Shown: positions 11,446-60,557 of the stretch, piece after piece
Layout of the letters: the number at the start of each line of letters is the position of its first letter
Position numbering within the stretch: position 1 is the stretch's first letter
DNA from: Phycisphaerae bacterium
Lineage (GTDB): Bacteria; Planctomycetota; Phycisphaerae; Sedimentisphaerales; SM23-30
Assembly (NCBI GenBank): GCA_016342495.1
Contig: JAEIOG010000008.1
Location: 1-64,000 of the forward strand
Direction: 5' to 3'
Length of the DNA stretch: 64,000 bases
Program-made: the position numbers and the translations under genes
Notes under the pieces: generated by a model
Told to the model about the DNA's origin: nothing
Databases searched by the model: none
The model's input: the letters and a program-made list of their open reading frames with translations, nothing else

Positions 11446-12022
11446 AAACAACTTCCACCATATTCATATAACACACATGTAGAGACAAGGCATGCCTTGT
11501 CTTTGACCAACCTTAAGGTGGCAAGGGTCCGCCAATAAGCGACCCCTTGGCCTGTATGCCGCCGTCAATGATGTTGTTAATCTTTCTGGATGGCTAATAA
11601 AATCTGCGCAATCCGCATGTGAGCAAGTTTATTTAGCGGCAAACCTAAAGTTATATTCGATATACACTTAACAAATGATTCATGCTAAAATTAAGTCTTC
11701 CGGGCTTGTAGTCACCAAATAACCATAAAAACCCAGCCCAACCAGTGATAATCAAAAACCAATTGCTTCAAAACAGGCTCTGCCAGCTTAAAAACCCACA
11801 AAACCATTTAAGTAATCATTAGCTCTTGCCCAATCAAATCTGCTCGATCCGTTAAAATTCGTGTCCTATTCTTATATTTTCCCCGCCACTAAAAAATCTC
11901 ACTCACATCCGCATTCTATATAAGTTATTTCACTAATTTTATACCAAATAATGCCCGATAAGAAATAATAACTATGTATCCCCGATATTTTTATCTCAGC
12001 AAATAAATGAAAGCAATTTATC

Positions 12023-14059
12023 ATGAAATCATTATCAAAAATTTTATTGTTGACTATAATTACCTTCTTATCATTTCCTGTTATTTCCCATGCTCAAAAC
12101 CGTTCCAGCTTGGAACTGATGTCCTTTGAACTTAATCGAATAGCCGGCGTTGAAACTATTAATTCAATTGCCGCCTTAGATCAGGGCCAGAAATTCCTTG
12201 ATTCACTCAATAGCAGTGAAACCTGGCTAACAGATCTGCTTGATAGCGGCCCGGTCCAAAATCCCAAACGCATACTCACAATGCTTCATCGTATCTGGCT
12301 GCAGGACAATTATATTGCCAATGATGATCTCAAACGTTCGTTTGCTACCGCATGTAGCCTGGCTATGGGTATGAATACCCGTCTGGACGAAGACTGGATG
12401 TTCAACCGTTATCAATATTTCCTCGATAGCTGGGACAATGGTCGACTCAATAAATGTTTCTCCGACCTTGCAACCTGGGAAAGGCGTTATATCGCCCGTG
12501 GCCCGCAATATTCCAGCTATTCCAGCGTAGAATCCCTGAAGTATCTCCAGCAGCGTATCTGTTTGCCTCGCAAAGATTATGTCGGGGCTTGTTGGCAGGC
12601 TCCTTATCGGGGCCATAACTGTTTTGGTGATAGCGTTCAGGGCCCCAAATATTATCAGCCTTTCCGCGGCTCCTTTTCCTGTGATCCAGAGATGGCAATT
12701 ACCGTTGGGGGTGTCTGTGGCGCTTTATCGAATCTTGGTACTGCCGCCGCTATCGCCAATGGCATTCCGGCTACTTCAATGGGCGAGCCGGGTCATTGTG
12801 CTTATGCCGTCAATACCGCCCCTGGCATTTGGACTCCCGCATATTCGCTTTCGTGGAAACGGGGCATGCATACATCTTTCTATCGTGGTACCTGGACTGA
12901 TCTTATGCTCGCCCAGGCTTGTTTTGAAAAACCCGATCTTGTCCATAAAGCCGCTAATCTCCAAAGGTTGGCCCATTGGAATGAAAGTCTGGGCAATATC
13001 AAAGATGCCGATCTTGCATTAGCTCAGGCAATTAAAACTCATCCGATGCACTATGCTATTTGGATTGACCGCGCCGAATTTGCCATCCGACATAAATTTG
13101 ATGCCAAATGGTGGAAAGCTTATCATGATGACATCCTTGAATTATTAGCTCCTGCTCATGAAGAACCCGCCTGGCATCTGCTCTCAAAGTATGTTTATGA
13201 CAATCTTACTACTAAAATGAGCAATGCCGCACGTACCGAAATATTCTTACAATATCTAAAGTCTTTTGATGATTTTGGAGCTGGCCGCTGGAATATCGAA
13301 TCTGCATGGTCCTGGATGACTGGCAAAGCTGGTGGCTCAAGCACTCAGAGAAAATTCCTTCGGCAGTTAGCCGATGCGACTATTACTTCCCCGGGACTGG
13401 GTGCTGCTTGTCTGGCCTGGGTTAAAAATTATTATGAAAAAGATGATCGGCAATGGCTGGAATTCCAGAATTGGCTTGTCGCCAGACTCGATAGTAATGG
13501 TGATGGTGCCGATAGTATCATCCGCCAACTGGGGCGTACCGCTATGCCGGCAGCCGCTAAACGTGGCGATCTTGCCTCCTATCAGGCTATTGGTAAACTT
13601 TGTTCCAGACTCTATAAGTCCACTGACACCAAAGGCATTGACCCATTTCCCGGCGAACTGCTAACCGAAGGCGGGGCGATGAATATATCTGGCATAGGTG
13701 AACATTATGATTCTCCAGAACAGCATTGGGGTGTCCTGAATATGCATGGCGGGGCATTGCACACTAATACCACAACCACACCTTGGGTCGAAGTGAAGCT
13801 TGGCAATTTTGGTCTGCTAAACGGAATTGTAATCCAGAATCGTCCTGGTGGTTTTATGTCACGTGCTAATGGTGCCCGTGTACTTGTCTCCACTGATGGT
13901 CAGGATTGGCAGCAGGTTGGCAAGCTCGAAGGGGCGAAACTTTTCTATCGCATTGACCTGAGCCAAACCAAACCTCAGGCTGGATATCTTCGCATCGAAC
14001 GCGATGGTCAATGCATGCACTTTGCCAGAATCTTAGCCTATGGCCAAAGAACCAACTAA
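12023..14059 (+). CDS. Secreted hypothetical protein with a C-terminal F5/8 type C (discoidin)-like domain; possible transglutaminase-like Cys/His core in the N-terminal half
   Basis: Signal peptide 'MKSLSKILLLTIITFLSFPVISHA'. The C-terminus 'VEVKLGNFGLLNGIVIQNRPGG...RVLVSTDGQDWQQVG' resembles discoidin. The 'GVCGALSNLG...GHCAYAV' reading is speculative. Confidence 0.5.
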   Translation: MKSLSKILLLTIITFLSFPVISHAQNRSSLELMSFELNRIAGVETINSIAALDQGQKFLDSLNSSETWLTDLLDSGPVQNPKRILTMLHRIWLQDNYIANDDLKRSFATACSLAMGMNTRLDEDWMFNRYQYFLDSWDNGRLNKCFSDLATWERRYIARGPQYSSYSSVESLKYLQQRICLPRKDYVGACWQAPYRGHNCFGDSVQGPKYYQPFRGSFSCDPEMAITVGGVCGALSNLGTAAAIANGIPATSMGEPGHCAYAVNTAPGIWTPAYSLSWKRGMHTSFYRGTWTDLMLAQACFEKPDLVHKAANLQRLAHWNESLGNIKDADLALAQAIKTHPMHYAIWIDRAEFAIRHKFDAKWWKAYHDDILELLAPAHEEPAWHLLSKYVYDNLTTKMSNAARTEIFLQYLKSFDDFGAGRWNIESAWSWMTGKAGGSSTQRKFLRQLADATITSPGLGAACLAWVKNYYEKDDRQWLEFQNWLVARLDSNGDGADSIIRQLGRTAMPAAAKRGDLASYQAIGKLCSRLYKSTDTKGIDPFPGELLTEGGAMNISGIGEHYDSPEQHWGVLNMHGGALHTNTTTTPWVEVKLGNFGLLNGIVIQNRPGGFMSRANGARVLVSTDGQDWQQVGKLEGAKLFYRIDLSQTKPQAGYLRIERDGQCMHFARILAYGQRTN

Positions 14060-14071
14060 AGGAATTGAAAT

Positions 14072-14992
14072 ATGAATAATCTCAAAAAAATTATAATACT
14101 TATCGCAATCGCTGTTTTAGCTTCAAATTCATGGGCTGGCGTATATTTCGCTAATTCTTATGAACAGGCATTTCAGGCAGCTAAAAAACATAACTCAATT
14201 GTCATTGTACTAGTCCATGGCAGCGATTGGAATGTCAAAGGCCAGAAAATCTATACCAGTTTATTTAAGACCAAAACTATCAATCGCTCTTCGGTGAAAG
14301 ATAATGTAGTTTTTACCGATGTCGATATTTTGCAATCGCCCTCGGAATTTCAAAAAACCAATAATGATCAACGTAACAAAGGTTTTAAACCTCAGGGTAT
14401 CCATTCATACCCTGCGATATGCTCTTATTTGCCTGATGGCACACTTCTAGCGGTAAAGCAGGGTCAGGACGTCCCTACTGAAGTTATAAAGGTGAACAAA
14501 ACAGTTATTACTTTAATAGAAGATTCTGCTAAATATCAAAACTTAAAAGCCACAGCCGACAAAGCTAACAAAGCTAAAGATACCAAGGCAGAACTTGCCG
14601 CTCTGACTGAATTAGCTCAATTACCGCTTAATCAACCGAAAGATATTCTCAAACGAATCAAAGAACTTGACCCGGCTGATACCGATGGCTTACAGGCGAG
14701 ATTGAGTTTTCCGCATTGGCAGAAACTTTTTGCTGATACTACCAGCAGAACTCAAAAAGGTCAGGGACCAGAAGTTGAAAAAGAACTAAATGAAATGCTG
14801 AAAAACAAAGTTTATACCAAAGAACAATTAGCTACAATTCATGTGGCTATTGGAATATGCCATCGTCATCAGGCCGGCCATGAAGCCCAGGCAGCGGTGG
14901 CATTTCAGCAGGCCGCCCAGATTGCTCCCGGTACTTTCCCGGCTGAAGTTGGGACTCGCTGCTATGAAGCTTGGTATAAGAAAACTAAATAA
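14072..14992 (+). CDS. Secreted hypothetical protein (306 aa)
   Basis: Signal peptide 'MNNLKKIIILIAIAVLASNSWA'. No family recognised. Confidence 0.45.
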   Translation: MNNLKKIIILIAIAVLASNSWAGVYFANSYEQAFQAAKKHNSIVIVLVHGSDWNVKGQKIYTSLFKTKTINRSSVKDNVVFTDVDILQSPSEFQKTNNDQRNKGFKPQGIHSYPAICSYLPDGTLLAVKQGQDVPTEVIKVNKTVITLIEDSAKYQNLKATADKANKAKDTKAELAALTELAQLPLNQPKDILKRIKELDPADTDGLQARLSFPHWQKLFADTTSRTQKGQGPEVEKELNEMLKNKVYTKEQLATIHVAIGICHRHQAGHEAQAAVAFQQAAQIAPGTFPAEVGTRCYEAWYKKTK

Positions 14993-15181
14993 TTTATGGC
15001 AATACCAAAAAAAAACATCAAGCTCCATTATCAAAGGGTTAGGATGTTTTGACGCTGGCGATTAATTTTGTGTAAATGTTGAAAAAATCGAGTCCCCAAA
15101 GTGCTCGAAAACGACATAAAATTGCACAAAATTACCGAAAATTACAAAAAATTACCAAAAAATAACATAAAAACCGAGCAA

Positions 15182-15208
15182 AAATGGGCGGTTTCGGGCC
15201 GCCCATTT
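15182..15208 (-). terminator. Bidirectional rho-independent terminator between convergent genes
   Basis: 10-bp perfect stem AAATGGGCGG / CCGCCCATTT with a 7-nt loop. It is flanked by T/A runs on both strands. Confidence 0.6.
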
Positions 15209-34764: not shown

Positions 34765-34949
34765 CTGCTAAGGGCGGGGTTCACTTTATATAATGAGTAA
34801 TATTTTGGCTATATGAAGCAATATAGAACGAAGCGGCAGCGCCGTGCTAAGGCGTTATGCCACATTACATAATGCTTAAAGCAATTTCGGTGTAAAACCA
34901 CAATTTACGTTTTTTAGCTGGGCGCTACCGCTACCAGCTGTTTGTTGGC

Positions 34950-35300
34950 TAATAAATGCTGGTATTGTAATTGACCAGTGTTATCGCTTAGGCATCCGTC
35001 GGTATGCAGAGACGTTGCATGCAAAGTCTCTGCAGTTGTGTCCAGCACAATAGACATCCGACAGCGCGGGCATGGCCCACCCTGCAAAACTGGTAACTGG
35101 TAATTAGTTATCGCTAATGGGATAAGAGACAAGCAGGATGCTTGTCCTACAGATGGGTCCCTCGCCAGCTACATCCAGACGGTCCAAGGCGGCAACGACG
35201 CCGGTACATCCACCAACCAATGATGCTTATGTAAGTTATGTCCAGCTTCAAGCTGGTAGGGTAGAGACGTTGCATGCAACGTCTCTACTACAGTATTGTG
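34950..35300. repeat. Copy A of a composite palindrome-rich repeat element, in the same orientation as copy C at 57590-58065 and inverted relative to copy B at 55305-55830
   Basis: Shared blocks with copy C are 'gctggtatt..ttgac', 'gacaagcaggatgcttg', 'ggcggcaacg.cgccgg...ccaacca.tgat.cttatgtaag' and 'CCAGCTTCAAGCTGG'. The hairpin 'tagagacgttgcatgcaacgtctcta' is shared with copy B. Confidence 0.7.
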
Positions 35301-35461: not shown

Positions 35462-35543
35462 TCATCCCCGCGCAGGCGGGGATCCAGGAGATGCAAGCCA
35501 TGATTTTAGCTCGAAAACTGGATTCCCGCCTGCGTGGGAATGA
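35462..35543. promoter_or_regulatory. Pair of GC-rich hairpins in mutually inverted orientation, located between repeat copy A and the LRR gene
   Basis: 'CCCCGCGCAGGCGGGG' and 'TTCCCGCCTGCGTGGGAA' are separated by about 40 nt. Confidence 0.4.
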
Positions 35544-53353: not shown

Positions 53354-55207
53354 TCATTTCTCCGCGGCTAAATAAAGCTTGACCCGGCAGTCAATAAGAT
53401 TATCTTTGGCCTTCACTGATTTATCAGTGATATTAAACTGCCAGCCGGCTTTGCCATCAGTCAGCATAACCACGGTATTTAACGTGATAAGGGCTACCAG
53501 CGGCTTATCGGTTTCGGCCAGCACCTTCATAATGGTCGGGCGCGGGTCAGCAGCACCGGTAAGACCCAGGAATTCGGCTGCCCGAACCTTCACCAGCTCA
53601 TTATCATCCTTTTCAGCGATGGCTTTGGCCTTATCATAGAAGTCCGCTGCCTGATTGCCAAAACAGCTGCACACGATTAAGGCCCAGTAACGCTTGAATG
53701 GATCCTTATCTGCCAGTGCCCGGTCAATACCAGCTTTGGCCTTGTCATAATCTTCCAATGCCAGGTCCGCCACATCGATTAATTCGGCGATACGTCCCTT
53801 ATTTTTTATTCCAAAGGCGATCGGATCGCCAAAGGCATGCTCACAGAGATAACTTTCCGGGAAGAAACTCAAATCCGGCAATGCCTTAGCCTGATTTTGC
53901 AGTTTGCCGCGTAGCTGAGCTAACACATCTCGATAAGCCGGATCCTTAGCGAGGTTCTTAACTTCATAGGGATCCTTAACCACATCGAATAAAGTCTCCG
54001 GATCACGGCCCAAAAAGAACTGGCTTTGCACTTCATTGAGTTTACCAGCTTTATAAAGCTCTCTCCATTCCTGATAAGCGATCATTTTATAGCGATAATT
54101 ATTCTGCAGGGCATCGAAATTAAAACCCTGATAGTTGCGATGATACTTAAATTGACCCTTCCGGACAGTTCGCACCATATCATACTTTTCATCAAAGCGG
54201 TCAGCGATCCCATAAGCTTCATCCTGCCGAGCAACAGCTTTGATATCGACCTTAGGTCCCAGGAAAGGCTTGCCATCAGCTAACTCAGGAATCTTAACAC
54301 CGGCCAGATTCAATGCCGTTGGGGCCATATCGATAAAATTGACAAAGCCATCGAATCTTGTACCTGCCTTTAAGTCGATCAGATGCCTGAAATTAGCCGG
54401 GATCCGCATGACCATCGGCACATGCAGCCCGGTTTCATAGAGATAACCCTTGCTGCGTGGGGTAACTCCGCCATGATCGCCAAAATAAAAGATGAAAGTA
54501 TCTTCCAGAACGCCCTGAGCCTCTAATTTAGCGACCATTTCACCAATTTGCTCATCGAGAATCTCATGATGCTTGTAATATTGATTATAAGTCTTGCGGA
54601 AAACCTCGGTGTCAGGGTAATGAGGGGGAAGTTTAATATCTTTATTGTCGATACCGGTCTTGCCGGCCTTTTGCAGCGGTCCTTCATGGGTAATAGCGAA
54701 CTGATGTTGATGGAAAAACGGCTGGCCGGGCTGCCGGCCTTGCCAGGTTTTATTGGAGTCAAAGACATCTTTGCCCCAGTTAAAGTTAAAATCGGTCTTA
54801 CGAAAATAAGAAGTATAATAACCGGCCTGCTTCAGATAAGCCGGAAAGGGCTTTAGGCCATCGGGCAGCTCAACTGGCTGATATTTACGGTGATAATGGA
54901 TCGCCAGCTTATTAGGATAGCAGCCAGTGATCAAGGTAGACCTTGCCGCCGAGCAGACCGGGCAATTGGAAAAGGCATGGTCAAAGATAACACCCTTGCC
55001 GGCGAGCTTATTGACATTGGGCATATCCACACCATCTCTATTATAGATATTGCAGAAGTGTTGGGAATTATCTTCGGATATCAGCCAGACTATATTAGGC
55101 CTTTTACCCTTGATCGGGCTCTGGCTGAAGCAATTATCAGAGCCCAGTAGAACGGCACCCAGGCTCAAACCGGCCATTTTAATGAATTGACGACGACTAT
55201 TTGGCAT
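53354..55207 (-). CDS. Cys-type sulfatase (arylsulfatase family) with a Tat-like signal and a C-terminal HEAT/ARM-like extension
   Basis: 'MPNSRRQFIKMAGLSLGAVLL' and 'PNIVWLISEDNS...CPVCSAARSTLITG' give a C-x-A-x-R FGly motif variant. 617 aa. Confidence 0.75.
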   Translation of the reverse strand: MPNSRRQFIKMAGLSLGAVLLGSDNCFSQSPIKGKRPNIVWLISEDNSQHFCNIYNRDGVDMPNVNKLAGKGVIFDHAFSNCPVCSAARSTLITGCYPNKLAIHYHRKYQPVELPDGLKPFPAYLKQAGYYTSYFRKTDFNFNWGKDVFDSNKTWQGRQPGQPFFHQHQFAITHEGPLQKAGKTGIDNKDIKLPPHYPDTEVFRKTYNQYYKHHEILDEQIGEMVAKLEAQGVLEDTFIFYFGDHGGVTPRSKGYLYETGLHVPMVMRIPANFRHLIDLKAGTRFDGFVNFIDMAPTALNLAGVKIPELADGKPFLGPKVDIKAVARQDEAYGIADRFDEKYDMVRTVRKGQFKYHRNYQGFNFDALQNNYRYKMIAYQEWRELYKAGKLNEVQSQFFLGRDPETLFDVVKDPYEVKNLAKDPAYRDVLAQLRGKLQNQAKALPDLSFFPESYLCEHAFGDPIAFGIKNKGRIAELIDVADLALEDYDKAKAGIDRALADKDPFKRYWALIVCSCFGNQAADFYDKAKAIAEKDDNELVKVRAAEFLGLTGAADPRPTIMKVLAETDKPLVALITLNTVVMLTDGKAGWQFNITDKSVKAKDNLIDCRVKLYLAAEK

Positions 55208-55304
55208 ATTTTACTCCTTTAACGGTGAAAAAGTGGCTTCGATATAGAGGATATTTCTCCAAAGACCCCAATTTGCCCAAAAATCCCCTCAAAATTAATA
55301 ATAA

Positions 55305-55830
55305 TCCAGCTTAAAGCTGGACATAACTTACATAAGGATCATTGGTCGCCAGCTTGAAGCTGGACACAGCTTACATAAGGATCATGGTCGGTGGGTACTC
55401 CCGCTTCCGTTGGTCGCTGCATCAGCCAGAACGTCATAAGCGGGGGACAAATGTTGATGCGGCCGTGACACATTTTGTAGAGAGTTTGCATGCAACGTCT
55501 CCACCCCCGGCCAGATGCCAGTCGCCAGAAACACCGGTCAAATACAATACCGGCATTATGAATCATTCAATATGTAGGACAAGCATCTTGCTTGTCATTT
55601 ATCCCCAGGCACCAGCACAATGAAACCAATATCAAGCAGGATGCTCGACCTACTTTGCCCAATGCAGGTTGAACCTGCTTACAACTTACATAAGGATCAT
55701 GGTCGGTGGGAGCTCCCGCTTCCGTTGGTCGCTGCTGCCGGCAGAACGTCACAGGCGGGGGACAAATGTTGATGCGGCCGTGACATATTTGTAGAGACAA
55801 GGCACCCCTTGTCTCAGCTTCCGGCTAAAT
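55305..55830. repeat. Copy B of the composite palindrome-rich repeat element (about 1.4 tandem units), inverted relative to copies A and C and directly 5' of the minus-strand sulfatase gene
   Basis: A 120-bp block 'cttacataaggatcatggtcggtggg..ctcccgcttccgttggtcgctgc...gcgggggacaaatgttgatgcggccgtgaca.attttgtagaga' occurs at 55371 and 55685. The palindromes are CCAGCTTAAAGCTGG and CCAGCTTGAAGCTGG. The reverse complement aligns with 57700-58060. Confidence 0.75.
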
Positions 55831-56043: not shown

Positions 56044-56670
56044 ATGGGAATAACGGAATCAAACATTTACCTAATATTCACTTTCATACTAGTTATCCTG
56101 ACAGCTAACATCAAATCCTTCAAGGATTGTTCGCTAGAGCCTGTCCGTTGGTATGATCTGACTGTATCGTCATGGATAATAGTGGCTATTATGTGCCTGC
56201 CACATAATATGCCCGGACATTTCACTTTCGTTGTCTGCTTTATGGTGGTGATGTATTTGTTATCCCTGCTTTTATGGCGATTTATGTTGCTATTTACCAA
56301 TGATCGTTCGCTTCAACGTCGCTGTTTGCCTTTACTTCGCATAATCAGCAGTGTTTTCATTTTTATCATAATGGTTTTATGGTCACAGCTGGCTTTTGCC
56401 GATGCCAAAGACTTCGCCGATGCCACTGCCCGAGAGCTTCAGGCTCAGATAGAAACTCAAGGCAGCTGTCCGGAGACTATCGATGGCTGGCAATCGGATT
56501 TAGGAAACCACCTTATCGCCTGGCATGGCAGCTATGGAATCAAATACCCTGTAAGATGCTTCTTGGATGACAGCGAAGACAGCTTCACAATCTTTATCAG
56601 TCAACATTTTGGCGAGAAATATATAATAACCGGCGGACTAAACAACAAATTATACTATGCCACCGAGTGA
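56044..56670 (+). CDS. Hypothetical membrane protein, paralog 1 (208 aa), with N-terminal TM helices and a conserved C-terminal 'AFADAKDFADATARELQAQIETQGSCPETIDGWQSD' domain
   Basis: It is 55-60% identical to the adjacent ORF, and the upstream 40 bp including the RBS region is also duplicated. Confidence 0.6.
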   Translation: MGITESNIYLIFTFILVILTANIKSFKDCSLEPVRWYDLTVSSWIIVAIMCLPHNMPGHFTFVVCFMVVMYLLSLLLWRFMLLFTNDRSLQRRCLPLLRIISSVFIFIIMVLWSQLAFADAKDFADATARELQAQIETQGSCPETIDGWQSDLGNHLIAWHGSYGIKYPVRCFLDDSEDSFTIFISQHFGEKYIITGGLNNKLYYATE

Positions 56671-56757: not shown

Positions 56758-57384
56758 ATGGATATAATGGAAGTATCATTTTACATATTAATATTTTTTG
56801 TGTTAGTTATTCTGGTATTTTACATAAGATCAATCAAAAATCACCAGCAGGAGCCCATCGGCTTGCTTCATCTGACAATACCAACTTTGCTAATACTCGC
56901 TTTCATTGGGCTTCCGCATAATATGCCTGGACTTTGGATTTTCGCAGGTTACTTCTTGGCTGTAATGTGGGTGCTTTCCCTGCTGCTGATGCGTTGGGTG
57001 CGGTCTTTAACTGATGCTCGCCCACTTCTGCGGCGCCATATTTCCTCTGTTCATGCGTTTATGAGCATTTTAATCTTTATCATAATGCTCTTATGGGCGC
57101 AGCTGGCTTATGCCGATGCCAAAGACTTCGCCGATGCCACCGCCCGGAAGATACAAGCTCAGATAGAAACCGAAGGCAGCTGCCCGGAGACTATCGATGG
57201 CTGGCAATCGGATTCAGGGGGATTCCTTAGCACCTGGCATGGCCGCTATGGAATAAAATTCCCTGTAAACTACACCTTAAACGAAAGCAAAGACTGCTTC
57301 ACAATCAGCATCGTACCCCATATTGCCCAACGCTATACAATAACCGGCGGCCCGAACCGCAAATTACATTATGCCACCGAGTAA
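56758..57384 (+). CDS. Hypothetical membrane protein, paralog 2 (208 aa)
   Basis: Tandem duplicate of 56044-56670. The motif 'TTATCCGCAGA' follows both genes. Confidence 0.6.
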   Translation: MDIMEVSFYILIFFVLVILVFYIRSIKNHQQEPIGLLHLTIPTLLILAFIGLPHNMPGLWIFAGYFLAVMWVLSLLLMRWVRSLTDARPLLRRHISSVHAFMSILIFIIMLLWAQLAYADAKDFADATARKIQAQIETEGSCPETIDGWQSDSGGFLSTWHGRYGIKFPVNYTLNESKDCFTISIVPHIAQRYTITGGPNRKLHYATE

Positions 57385-57589
57385 GTGGATTAATTAAAAA
57401 CAAATATTATCCGCAGACTGGCATAGCCAGCTTTACAAAGGGCATAGCCAGCTTTACTGAGACACAGATAAGACATCGGCGACCGCCGCTGAAATACGAA
57501 AATATATAAAATTCATCTTCGCTGCTGTTAAGCAGCTCTTATCTGCGTTCATCTGCGGATAAAAGTAATGATTTAATTAAAGACCCTGT

Positions 57590-58065
57590 CCCCCGCATCC
57601 GACGTTCAGCCGGATGCAGGCGGCAACGCCGCCGGTGGCACTTGCCAACCAGTGATTCTTATGTAAGGAGGGTGCAGGCTCAGCCTGTTGTGTGCAGGTT
57701 CAAGCTGGAGGGTGCAGGCTCAGCCTGCATTGGGCCAAGTAGGTCGAGCATCCTGCTTGACATTGGTTTTATTGTGCTGTTGCCTGGGGAAAAATGACAA
57801 GCAGGATGCTTGCGCTACTTATTGAATGAATCATAACGCTGGTATTCTATTTGACATTTGTCTCTGGTGCTCGACATCTGGCCGGATGCCCAGACAAGGG
57901 GTGCCTTGTCTCTACCAAATATGTCACGGGCGAATTAATATTTTCCCTCGGCCTGCGACGTTCTGGCTGATGCAGGCGGCAACGCCGCCGATAGCACTTG
58001 CCAACCAGTGATTCTTATGTAAGGAGGGTGCAGGCTCAGCCTGTTGTGTGCAGGCTCAGCCTGGT
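57590..58065. repeat. Copy C of the composite repeat element (about 1.35 tandem units), upstream of the triple-module LRR gene
   Basis: 'ccggatgcaggcggcaacgccgccg.t.gcacttgccaaccagtgattcttatgtaaggagggtgcaggctcagcctg' occurs at 57610 and 57960. The CAGGCTCAGCCTG palindrome occurs three times, along with the hairpin 'agacaaggggtgccttgtct'. Confidence 0.75.
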
Positions 58066-58072
58066 TGGGTTA

Positions 58073-58198
58073 AAAGTGAACTTGATTCTGGCAAAAGTGA
58101 ATTCAATTCTGTCAAAAGTGAGTTCAATTATGTTAGAAGTGAATTCAATTCTGTCGAAAGTGAACTTGATTCTGTCAGAAGTGAACTTGATTATTACT
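58073..58198. repeat. Six tandem copies of a 21-bp unit (consensus AAAGTGAAYTYRATTCTGTCR), with no spacers
   Basis: The units begin at 58073, 58094, 58115, 58136, 58157 and 58178, with 2-5 mismatches each. Confidence 0.8.
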
Positions 58199-58487
58199 CT
58201 TTTAAGCATGATTTTGCCTGTTTCGAAGGGGGAAATGGCTGTTTTACGCTGAAATCCGGCTTTTATTTATCGGTCCGGGCCGCTGGCGGGGGCATTGGCG
58301 GCTCTTTGACGCTGATTTGTGGCTGACTTTAAGATATTATTGAAGATTCCTGCTGGGCCGGCCTTGATTGTGGCGGTTGGGCAGGGTTGATCGTACCAGT
58401 TTTTTTCTATTGCATAGCAGTATGGCCCGGTTTATAATCTCCCTGCGGCAGAAATGAAGCTTAACGGCCCCCAGCGGAGATCAAACC

Positions 58488-60557
58488 ATGACCAAATATG
58501 TAAGCCAAAGCATAATAGCGATTATCGCAGCAACAATCATGCTCGCCTTAACCTCCTGTGACAGTAAAAGCGAACCCTTCAATATCAGCTCATCGGAAGA
58601 TGTTGCTCAAAAAAATGATACAATGACACTTAGGCAACAGGCGGCTTATGATAAAGCCCTGCTTATGATTAAGCAGGCAAAAGTCAATAAAGCTAACATG
58701 CTCAACATTTTTTCTATAGACCTTACAAAAGTGCCGAACGAGATATCCCAGCTCTATGAACTAAAGGAACTATATATTTCCTGTAATCCATTATTAAGTT
58801 TACCACTTGAGATCGGCAATTTAACAGCATTGAGATCTTGTTTTATTACTTATAACGATCTGATAGCCTTACCTCCTGAGATTGGCCAGCTTAGTAACCT
58901 CGAAGAATTAAGTTTTACCGGTAATAGCTTAAATTATCTTCCTGCTGAGATCGGTGAGTTATCCAATCTGGAATTTTTATATCTTGATGATAATAATCTA
59001 ACCAGCCTACCCGAGGAAATCAGGCAGTTAACTAACCTTAGAATTCTGGATCTTAGTAATAATAAACTTACAATCCTGCCTCGCTGGATTACTGAAATGG
59101 ATATGAATATTCGCTGGGGGACTGGCTTTGTAGTTAAAGGCATCAACCTCTACGGCAACCCTCTTCAAGAGCCGCCGATAGATATTGTGATGCAGGGCAA
59201 GGAAGCGATTAAGCAGTATTTTGCGGATAAGGAAGCAACCGCAAAAGCTGGTGATGATGTTAAAGAAGCTAAGATGATCGCCGAAGAGCGTGCGGCCTAT
59301 GATAAAGCTCTCAGCGAGATTAAAAAGGCTAAAGATGAAAATGCCATTTATCTGTGGCTGCATGAAATACCTCTTAGCAAGTTACCGCCGGAGATTGGTG
59401 AACTTATCTGGCTGGAGAAATTGTTTATTTTTAAAACTGAGCTATCCAGTTTACCGCCAGAAATCGGGCAATTGACTGCATTGAAGCAGCTTGCTGTTCA
59501 TGACAATCAGCTGACTGGTTTACCGAAGGAGATTGGCCAGCTTAATCGCCTTGAAATCTTCTCTGTGGAAGATAATCGTCTGACTTGTCTGCCGGCTGAG
59601 ATCGGAAAGTTGACTGCTCTGCAAGAGTTGAGGCTTTGCAATAATAAACTAAACAGCATTCCCGATCAAATCAGCCAGCTGGCTAACCTTAGATGTCTTG
59701 ATCTTAGGGGTAATGAGCTTAAGAGTTTACCTGGCTGGATTACGGAAATGGATATGAAGATTCTCTGGGGAGAACATGGGAATTTTAAAGGCATAAACCT
59801 CTACGGCAACCCTCTTCAAGAGCCACCGATTGAGATTGTCAAACAGGGCAGGGCCGCTATAAAGCAATATTTTGGAATTGATGATGCAGGTTTTCCAGCA
59901 AGCATTGTCCAGAGAAAAGCTAAGATAGCAGCTAAACAGCAAATGGCCTATGATAAAGCTCTCAAGAAGATTAAAAAGGCCAAGGCTGAAAATGTCACAA
60001 CACTATATCTATCTGGAATGGACCTGATAAAGTTGCCGGCCGAGATTGGTGAGCTCACCGAGCTGGAAAAGCTGGTTATTTTTAAAACTGAGTTATCCAG
60101 TTTACCGCCTCAGATCGGTAAGTTGACTGCATTGAAAAACCTTGATGTCAGTTTCAACCAGCTGACTTGTTTACCGCCAGAGATTGGTCAGCTCAGCAAC
60201 CTTGAAACCTTGTTTGTTGAAGATAGTAATCTGACTTGTCTGCCGGCTGAGATCGAAAAGTTGTCTAACCTGCAAGAATTGATGCTTAGTAATAATAAAC
60301 TAACCAGTCTTCCCGAGGAAATTACCCGGTTGACTAACCTTAAACGCGTACATCTGTTAAATAATAAACTCAAAACCCTGCCGGTCTGGATTACCGAAAT
60401 GGATATGGCGATCATCTGGGATAAATCCGATGCATCTGAAGCCATTTTCCTCTACGGCAACCCGCTGGAAGAACCGCCGATTGAGATTGTCAAACAGGGC
60501 AATGCCGCTATTAGGCGGTATTTTGAGGATAAGGGCGAGGGAAAGCCTCGGGAGTAA
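58488..60557 (+). CDS. Leucine-rich-repeat protein built of three tandem copies of the module found in the 226-aa LRR protein. Each copy has the AAYDKAL helix, about six LRRs and a WITEMDM...GINLYGNPLQEPPIEIVKQG..AIKQYF cap.
   Basis: The module boundaries lie near residues 45, 260 and 470. The LRR consensus 'L..L.L..N.L..LP.EIGQL..L' occurs more than 18 times. The N-terminus 'MTKYVSQSIIAIIAATIMLALTSCD' is lipoprotein-like. Confidence 0.8.
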   Translation: MTKYVSQSIIAIIAATIMLALTSCDSKSEPFNISSSEDVAQKNDTMTLRQQAAYDKALLMIKQAKVNKANMLNIFSIDLTKVPNEISQLYELKELYISCNPLLSLPLEIGNLTALRSCFITYNDLIALPPEIGQLSNLEELSFTGNSLNYLPAEIGELSNLEFLYLDDNNLTSLPEEIRQLTNLRILDLSNNKLTILPRWITEMDMNIRWGTGFVVKGINLYGNPLQEPPIDIVMQGKEAIKQYFADKEATAKAGDDVKEAKMIAEERAAYDKALSEIKKAKDENAIYLWLHEIPLSKLPPEIGELIWLEKLFIFKTELSSLPPEIGQLTALKQLAVHDNQLTGLPKEIGQLNRLEIFSVEDNRLTCLPAEIGKLTALQELRLCNNKLNSIPDQISQLANLRCLDLRGNELKSLPGWITEMDMKILWGEHGNFKGINLYGNPLQEPPIEIVKQGRAAIKQYFGIDDAGFPASIVQRKAKIAAKQQMAYDKALKKIKKAKAENVTTLYLSGMDLIKLPAEIGELTELEKLVIFKTELSSLPPQIGKLTALKNLDVSFNQLTCLPPEIGQLSNLETLFVEDSNLTCLPAEIEKLSNLQELMLSNNKLTSLPEEITRLTNLKRVHLLNNKLKTLPVWITEMDMAIIWDKSDASEAIFLYGNPLEEPPIEIVKQGNAAIRRYFEDKGEGKPRE

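Follow-up and report, generated by a model that had tools for sequence, protein, structure and literature searches.

A tandem array of six 21-bp units upstream of an LRR lipoprotein gene in Phycisphaerae, tentatively read as an old minisatellite

Six 21-bp units lie head to tail at 58072-58197, with no spacers and no indels, directly upstream of the gene for a repeat-rich LRR lipoprotein in the 64-kb window (the whole stretch of DNA analyzed). The units differ from one another at about one position in five, no second copy of the array is present in the window, and neither a coding nor an RNA signal was found in it. Our leading reading, which we hold tentatively, is that the array is an old minisatellite, now fixed; we infer that it arose by slippage and serves no dedicated function. 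As it stands this means very little: a single metagenome-assembled genome has yielded a further intergenic minisatellite. If a bound operator array were proven, it would open a first way into how transcription of a repeat-rich LRR surface lipoprotein gene is controlled in Phycisphaerae, where hardly any promoter or regulator has been characterized. The neighboring dispersed repeat, with its covarying hairpins, is arguably more interesting than the array.

The array and its surroundings

A first-pass annotation of this DNA had described a six-copy tandem array here, and the array proved to be real. Tandem Repeats Finder gave a period of 21 bp over 58072-58187 (5.5 copies, 81% matches, score 134) and a second period of 63 bp over 58069-58194; a separate repeat search returned the identical 21-bp register. 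The consensus, AAAGTGAAYTYRATTCTGTCR, matched five units at three or fewer mismatches, where 0.01 matches are expected, and at least five matches were seen in 0 of 100 shuffles. On a matrix built from the six units, the units themselves score 27-33 bits, and the best match elsewhere in the window scores 10.9. The array is thus far above chance. The annotation was also right that this is not a CRISPR array, the units being contiguous and without spacers, that one unit spans two helical turns (period, 21 bp), and that the array sits between a copy of the dispersed repeat, ending at 58064, and the LRR gene, whose ATG is at 58488.

Eleven columns of the unit are invariant: AAGTGA (columns 3 to 8), T11, ATT (14 to 16), and T18. 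The units fall into two subtypes, CTTGA (units 1, 5, and 6) and TTCAA (units 2, 3, and 4), which are defined by three covarying columns. Mean pairwise identity is ∼78%; the closest pairs are units 1 and 5 (19/21) and units 2 and 4 (20/21), adjacent units have 14 to 18 of 21 bases in common, and unit 6 is the most diverged of the six. With a GC content of 32%, against 54% and 50% in its flanks, the array forms a sharp AT-rich island, the only AT-rich stretch found when the flanks were checked for a DNA-unwinding element. At its edges the array may fade into degenerate units (Table 1), although the level of in-register matching that these candidates reach is also attained by 7.6% of random 21-mers. 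The 63-nt copy at 58153-58215 shares 67% identity with the reference copy.

Along this stretch come, in order, a sulfatase gene, the repeat copies L1/L2, two 208-aa open reading frames (ORFs), the repeat copies R1/R2, the array, 290 bp of unique DNA, the LRR gene, and a radical SAM gene. The LRR gene contains three internal 651-bp repeats and has a GGAG 8 nt ahead of its ATG. Its best candidate promoter falls below the −35 threshold of the promoter scan and is to be taken as predicted. The window as a whole is chromosomal, with genes for EF-G, dihydropteroate synthase (FolP), a MiaB-like enzyme, glycoside hydrolases, and sulfatases. A Pfam scan covered 36 ORFs (34 of the 43 ORFs of at least 150 aa, taken as the plausible genes, plus two short ORFs over the array), and among these there was no gene for Rep, Par, a relaxase, an integrase, a transposase, a phage protein, an HTH regulator, or a LytTR protein or other response regulator.

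Table 1 Features of the array and its neighborhood, with positions in the window
Feature	Position	Strand	Remarks
Repeat copy M (fifth copy)	34940-35290	+	Upstream of the second LRR gene (LRR-226)
Sulfatase gene	53354-55207	-	First in the local feature order
Repeat copies L1 and L2	55303-55870	-	Tandem, hairpin-rich, ∼315 bp
208-aa ORFs	56044-56670 and 56758-57384		Paralogous, multi-pass membrane, 54% identical
9-mer TTATCCGCA	56692, 57407, 57554 (-), 59222 (-)		Differs from the DnaA box at one position; all four copies within 2.6 kb around the array
Repeat copy R1 (full unit)	57577-57945	+	Three hairpin-B units at 57672-57727
Repeat copy R2	57946-58064	+	90% identical to R1 (57590-57708)
Possible degenerate 5' edge unit	58051-58071		Overlaps last hairpin-B copy of R2; 12/21 allowed in-register matches; weak
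Array units 1 to 5, in order			AAAAGTGAACTTGATTCTGGC, AAAAGTGAATTCAATTCTGTC, AAAAGTGAGTTCAATTATGTT, AGAAGTGAATTCAATTCTGTC, GAAAGTGAACTTGATTCTGTC
Array unit 6	58177-58197		AGAAGTGAACTTGATTATTAC; 26.9 bits on the unit matrix
Possible degenerate 3' edge unit	58198-58218		TCTTTTAAGCATGATTTTGCC; 12/21 allowed in-register matches; weak
Second promoter-like site	58306-58335	+	TTGACG-18-TAAGAT; 9/12 consensus match only; 108 bp past the array
Best candidate LRR promoter	58410-58438	+	TTGCAT-17-TATAAT; by eye from the sequence; 212 bp past the array
LRR lipoprotein gene (LRR-689)	58488-60557	+	689 aa; Pfam LRR_14/LRR_4/LRR_8

The dispersed, hairpin-rich repeat (∼315 to 356 bp) occurs in five copies at three loci and in each case points at the downstream gene (LRR-226, the sulfatase gene, or LRR-689). 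At its end stand an invariant CTTATGTAAG and, after it, a short hairpin with a covarying stem (CAGCTTCAAGCTG, CAGGTTCAACCTG, and CAGGCTCAGCCTG) and a conserved TCA center. The RNA of R1 plus R2 folds much better than shuffled sequences (z = −5.3), and Rfam gave no match to the repeat; it may be a structured leader or an element of the REP/MITE type. Of two motif patterns from the repeat, one had no match and the other had nine in viral contigs, none in the loci fetched; by our estimate nine matches to the 17-mer are about the chance level. No homology between the array unit and the 20-bp hairpin-B unit of the repeat was detectable, alignment scores being equal to those of permuted units (p = 0.45). 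Between L1 and the sulfatase ATG, at 55210-55300, A/T tracts are phased at 10 to 11 bp; for A/T phasing this stretch ranks in the window's top 0.2%, for predicted bend it ranks fourth, and it is placed with respect to the dispersed repeat just as the 21-bp array is.

Inverted arms of 294 nt (55385-55678 and 57714-58007), formed by the dispersed repeats and 78% complementary, bracket the two 208-aa membrane ORFs in the manner of a cassette; no recombinase gene was seen nearby. The first of these ORFs is 100% identical to a protein annotated as hypothetical protein JEZ07_02580 of a Phycisphaerae bacterium MAG, and the second is annotated by NCBI as a 107-aa fragment. Neither belongs to a family in Pfam, NCBIfam, or PHROG; a word-indexed search with a 208-aa ORF returned only itself, and a full HMMER profile search returned 95 distant relatives of ∼200 to 230 aa. 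Just past the stop codon of the second ORF, at 57420-57461, is an unrelated tandem of 21-bp period, GGCATAGCCAGCTTTAC twice, perfect over 17 nt. Farther away, a 24-nt GC-rich palindromic element, TCATCCCCGCGCAGGCGGGGATCC, occurs as an inverted pair (35462-35485 and 35520-35543) upstream of the 226-aa LRR gene. This element looks REPIN-like, and we take its sequence to resemble type I-E CRISPR repeats; it forms no array and has no further copy in the window.

The first-pass annotation had named further genomic occurrences of the 21-mer as a test. The unit matrix found none on either strand of the window, and no homologous array came to light in public collections. A two-unit pattern run against 185,579 species genomes, the JGI metagenomes, and IMG/VR, collections to which the source genome does not belong, gave chance matches only (part of a coding sequence, an AT-rich repeat in two copies in Thioglobus-like contigs, and an 84-bp duplication without relation to the array), and the plasmid and phage collections gave no match. 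Exact look-ups of the window's proteins in the collections found no second sequence of the locus. The radical SAM gene downstream has its nearest orthologues at ∼60% amino acid identity, with different gene neighbors and no synteny. In the three closest-relative assemblies (ENA contigs), the contig stops within the gene that directly precedes the radical SAM orthologue; a repeat-rich gene there, such as an LRR gene, would explain these assembly breaks. A literature search on intergenic repeats of Planctomycetes, or on 21-bp tandem repeats located upstream of promoters, brought up no relevant work.

Duplication history and the minisatellite reading

All nine direct-repeat families of at least 40 nt in the window touch 55.3-60.5 kb, which marks this stretch as a local duplication hot spot. 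R1 and R2 are 90% identical, L1 and L2 88%, the L and R copies 78%, and the two 208-aa genes 80%, and the divergence of the long repeat families (70 to 90% identity) brackets that of the array units. R2 is truncated after two 20-bp hairpin-B units (58028-58063), and the array starts 7 bp beyond its end.

We suggest that a 21-bp segment beside the truncated R2 end was amplified head to tail, by replication slippage or unequal recombination, and that this would have been part of the same duplications that shaped the hot spot as a whole, namely R1/R2, L1/L2, the 208-aa paralogues, and the three 651-bp repeats of the LRR gene. The units would then have diverged by ∼20%. Any present effect would probably be passive: DNA that is AT rich, moderately bent, and partly dyad symmetric extends over 126 bp at a point ∼210 bp upstream of the predicted LRR promoter, and a protein could bind there.

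Several lines of evidence favor this reading. The start of the array, so close to the end of the R1/R2 homology, coincides with a duplication junction. The divergence of the units, with a mean identity of 78% and best pairs at 90 to 95%, is within the range of the neighboring duplicates. The outer units (unit 6 and, if they are units at all, the weak edge candidates) may be the more diverged ones, as expected under unequal exchange. Finally, there is no coding or RNA signal, no second copy in the window, and no Rep, Par, transposase, or HTH gene among the scanned ORFs, and the invariant columns are as many as chance would leave. By our own calculation, ∼13 random substitutions over 21 columns should leave ∼11 columns unchanged, and 11 were seen, which argues that no position-specific constraint acts on the array.

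Some observations sit less easily with a minisatellite. Dyad symmetry at the level described below (p ∼0.01) need not occur in a purely neutral array, the 21-bp register has stayed exact through ∼20% substitution, and the array forms a sharp island of AT-rich DNA. Bacteria tend to delete useless DNA, so the persistence of the array hints at some use.

Other accounts of the array

The main rival account, which we judge less likely than the minisatellite, makes the array a phased operator or enhancer-like platform. Each unit would be a putative site for a dimeric protein, a regulator or else a nucleoid-associated protein, whose gene lies elsewhere; dimers would bind cooperatively on one face of the DNA, given the two-turn spacing, and would modulate the LRR promoter ∼210 bp downstream by looping or spreading. 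The exact 21-bp period without indels would suit such a platform, as would the invariant AAGTGA core with ATT.T and the placement of an AT-rich island directly upstream of a surface lipoprotein gene. The first-pass annotation had proposed an iteron-like site for a dimeric regulator or replication initiator, and the dimer part of this proposal is mildly favored by the symmetry of the array. Self-complementarity across the array is 65%, against 51 ± 5% in column-permuted arrays (p ∼0.01), an excess that stems from the near-palindromic subtype-2 units (AGAAgTGAA|TTCAaTTCT). The subtype-1 units, however, are poor palindromes, the number of invariant columns is the random expectation, and the candidate promoters are far from the array. 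No regulator gene was present among the Pfam-scanned ORFs of the window, and no further copy of the site was found in the window or in the collections scanned.

Direct-repeat operators with a 21-bp period are established for the LytTR response regulators, whose sites consist of 9- to 10-bp direct repeats separated by 11- to 12-bp spacers (PMC2766830). Against [TA][AC][CA]GTTN[AG][TG], taken here as the consensus of the family, the best in-phase score of the array was 37/48, which 45% of column-permuted arrays equaled (p = 0.45); the match is at the chance level, and a LytTR operator was rejected. Intrinsic curvature was treated in the same way. A wedge model predicted that the 126 bp bend by 85 degrees, a value reached by only the top 3% of window tiles. 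An equal bend was found for 25% of column-permuted 21-bp arrays, however, and by model-free A/T phasing the array is only in the top 9% of the window. Curvature beyond that of any 21-bp array was rejected on these grounds.

A broader form of the operator account is doubtful: the array would be the docking platform of a new dimeric Phycisphaerae protein and, together with the dispersed repeat, would make up a new modular upstream control region for exported-protein genes of this uncultured lineage. It draws on the orientation of the dispersed repeat, which always points at a downstream gene (two LRR lipoprotein genes and the sulfatase gene).

The first-pass annotation also raised slipped-strand contingency, in which gain or loss of units would alter promoter geometry and so switch or tune LRR expression in a population. 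We consider this improbable. A head-to-tail array upstream of a repeat-rich surface-protein gene is a suitable setting, and a 21-bp unit keeps helical phase when the copy number changes. High-frequency slippage needs near-perfect repeats, however, and the units here are only ∼78% identical, with adjacent pairs never above 18/21. The array also lies neither between a −35 and a −10 element nor within an ORF, but ∼210 bp upstream of the best −35/−10 candidate, the promoters being predicted only. The contingency claim is thus disfavored.

It is very improbable that the array is coding sequence. It would then form part of a 92-aa ORF (58048-58326) with six coiled-coil-like heptads (KSELDSV/KSEFNSV), possibly the precursor of a repeat-bearing peptide. 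The frame is open, L/F and V occupy a/d-like heptad positions, a B12-radical SAM gene lies 2.5 kb downstream, and there is a weak PHROG match (E = 0.0044). On the other hand, two further frames are equally open across the array, and substitutions between units are spread 4/3/3 over the codon positions, which indicates no coding signal. The ORF has neither a methionine nor a Shine-Dalgarno sequence, its sole start being a GTG inside hairpin B, and it has no homologue among 5.8e9 proteins, no Pfam match, and no paralogue in the window. The radical SAM orthologues, moreover, sit in unrelated gene contexts.

We give very little credence to the view that the array belongs to a plasmid, phage, or secondary replicon that has integrated, its units serving as origin iterons or as a partition centromere to which a Rep or a ParR/ParB-type protein binds. 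Unit length, number, and phasing are typical of iterons, which are several direct repeats of ∼17 to 22 bp in helical phase; the six units, at exactly 21 bp, have this form, and the array is AT-rich. In addition, TTATCCGCA, a DnaA-box-like 9-mer with one mismatch, occurs four times, all at 56.7-59.2 kb, where we estimate ∼0.5 occurrences for the whole window. Three of these four copies, however, are in the duplicated or inverted flanks of the 208-aa genes. The perfect DnaA box, TTATCCACA, is absent from the window, and one-mismatch boxes number 22 against 19.7 expected, a count at the chance level. The scanned ORFs of the window include housekeeping genes (EF-G, FolP, and MiaB-like) and no Rep, Par, relaxase, integrase, or phage gene; the array has no match in the plasmid and phage collections; and the sole GC-skew switch is at ∼12-15 kb. 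The initiator part of the first-pass proposal is not supported, and neither is a partition centromere, no parA/parM-parB/parR operon being found directly downstream of the array.

The skew switch is a feature of its own. GC skew changes sign once in the window, ∼44 kb from the array, and reaches up to 0.3 afterward. The strongest bend predicted anywhere in the window falls on A tracts repeated in tandem every 10 bp, which lie between convergent genes at 15114-15172. The region 12000-15200 may be origin or terminus proximal, or may simply be where the strand bias of the genes switches.

The idea of a structured RNA, or of a 5' leader that includes the array and is transcribed from the dispersed repeat immediately upstream, is scarcely credible: that repeat folds well and its hairpins covary, but the array itself folds no better than shuffled sequences on its two strands (z = −0.44 and −1.24), and Rfam gave no match at the gathering score and chance-level miRNA-type hairpins below it. 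A Tn7/Mu-like transposon end was rejected, as no inverted partner site was found on either strand of the window (10.9 against 27-33 bits) and no transposase gene is among the scanned ORFs.

Comparison with known systems

Although its build is similar to that of iterons, LytTR operators, and parC-type centromeres, the array fails the testable defining features of each. Iterons of plasmids and phages, such as the seven 22-bp repeats of R6K and the four dyad-symmetric 19-bp repeats of the lambda origin, resemble the array in being 5 to 7 direct repeats of ∼20 bp in helical phase, in being AT rich, and, in lambda, in having dyad units. The array differs in having no Rep/O-type gene among the scanned ORFs of the window, no replicon context, a window-wide number of one-mismatch DnaA boxes at the chance level, and no similarity to plasmids or phages. 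The type II partition centromeres, pSK41 parC and R1 parC, are contiguous direct repeats of ∼10 to 20 bp coated cooperatively by dimers, and like the array they have no spacers; they lie directly upstream of plasmid parMR/parAB operons, whereas the neighbors of the array are the 208-aa membrane ORFs and the LRR lipoprotein gene. ParR/centromere complexes are discussed in PMC3074162.

LytTR sites share with the array a short core (AAGTGA in the array) recurring every 21 bp, with a less conserved AT-rich spacer. Known sites, however, are pairs just upstream of a −35 element with the cognate regulator nearby, whereas the array has six units, is more than 100 bp from any promoter-like site and ∼210 bp from the best one, and has no LytTR gene among the scanned ORFs of the window. 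Phase-variable tandem-repeat tracts likewise occur upstream of surface-protein genes. Contingency tracts are near-perfect repeats of 1 to 9 bp within promoters or ORFs, and the units here are long, diverged, and far from the promoter.

Since the defining features of the other families fail, the array is filed only as a minisatellite. Bacterial intergenic minisatellites, the VNTR loci used in MLVA typing, are head-to-tail arrays of units of tens of base pairs in intergenic, duplication-rich stretches, and their outer units are the more diverged; in the array, unit 6 is the most diverged of the six, and the candidate edge units reach 12/21, a level shared by 7.6% of random 21-mers. Loci that vary actively have less diverged units than those seen here (∼78% identity), and polymorphism is the hallmark of a VNTR. 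With its non-coding units arranged head to tail, and a unit length within the ∼10 to 100 bp of the class, the array has the form of a minisatellite.
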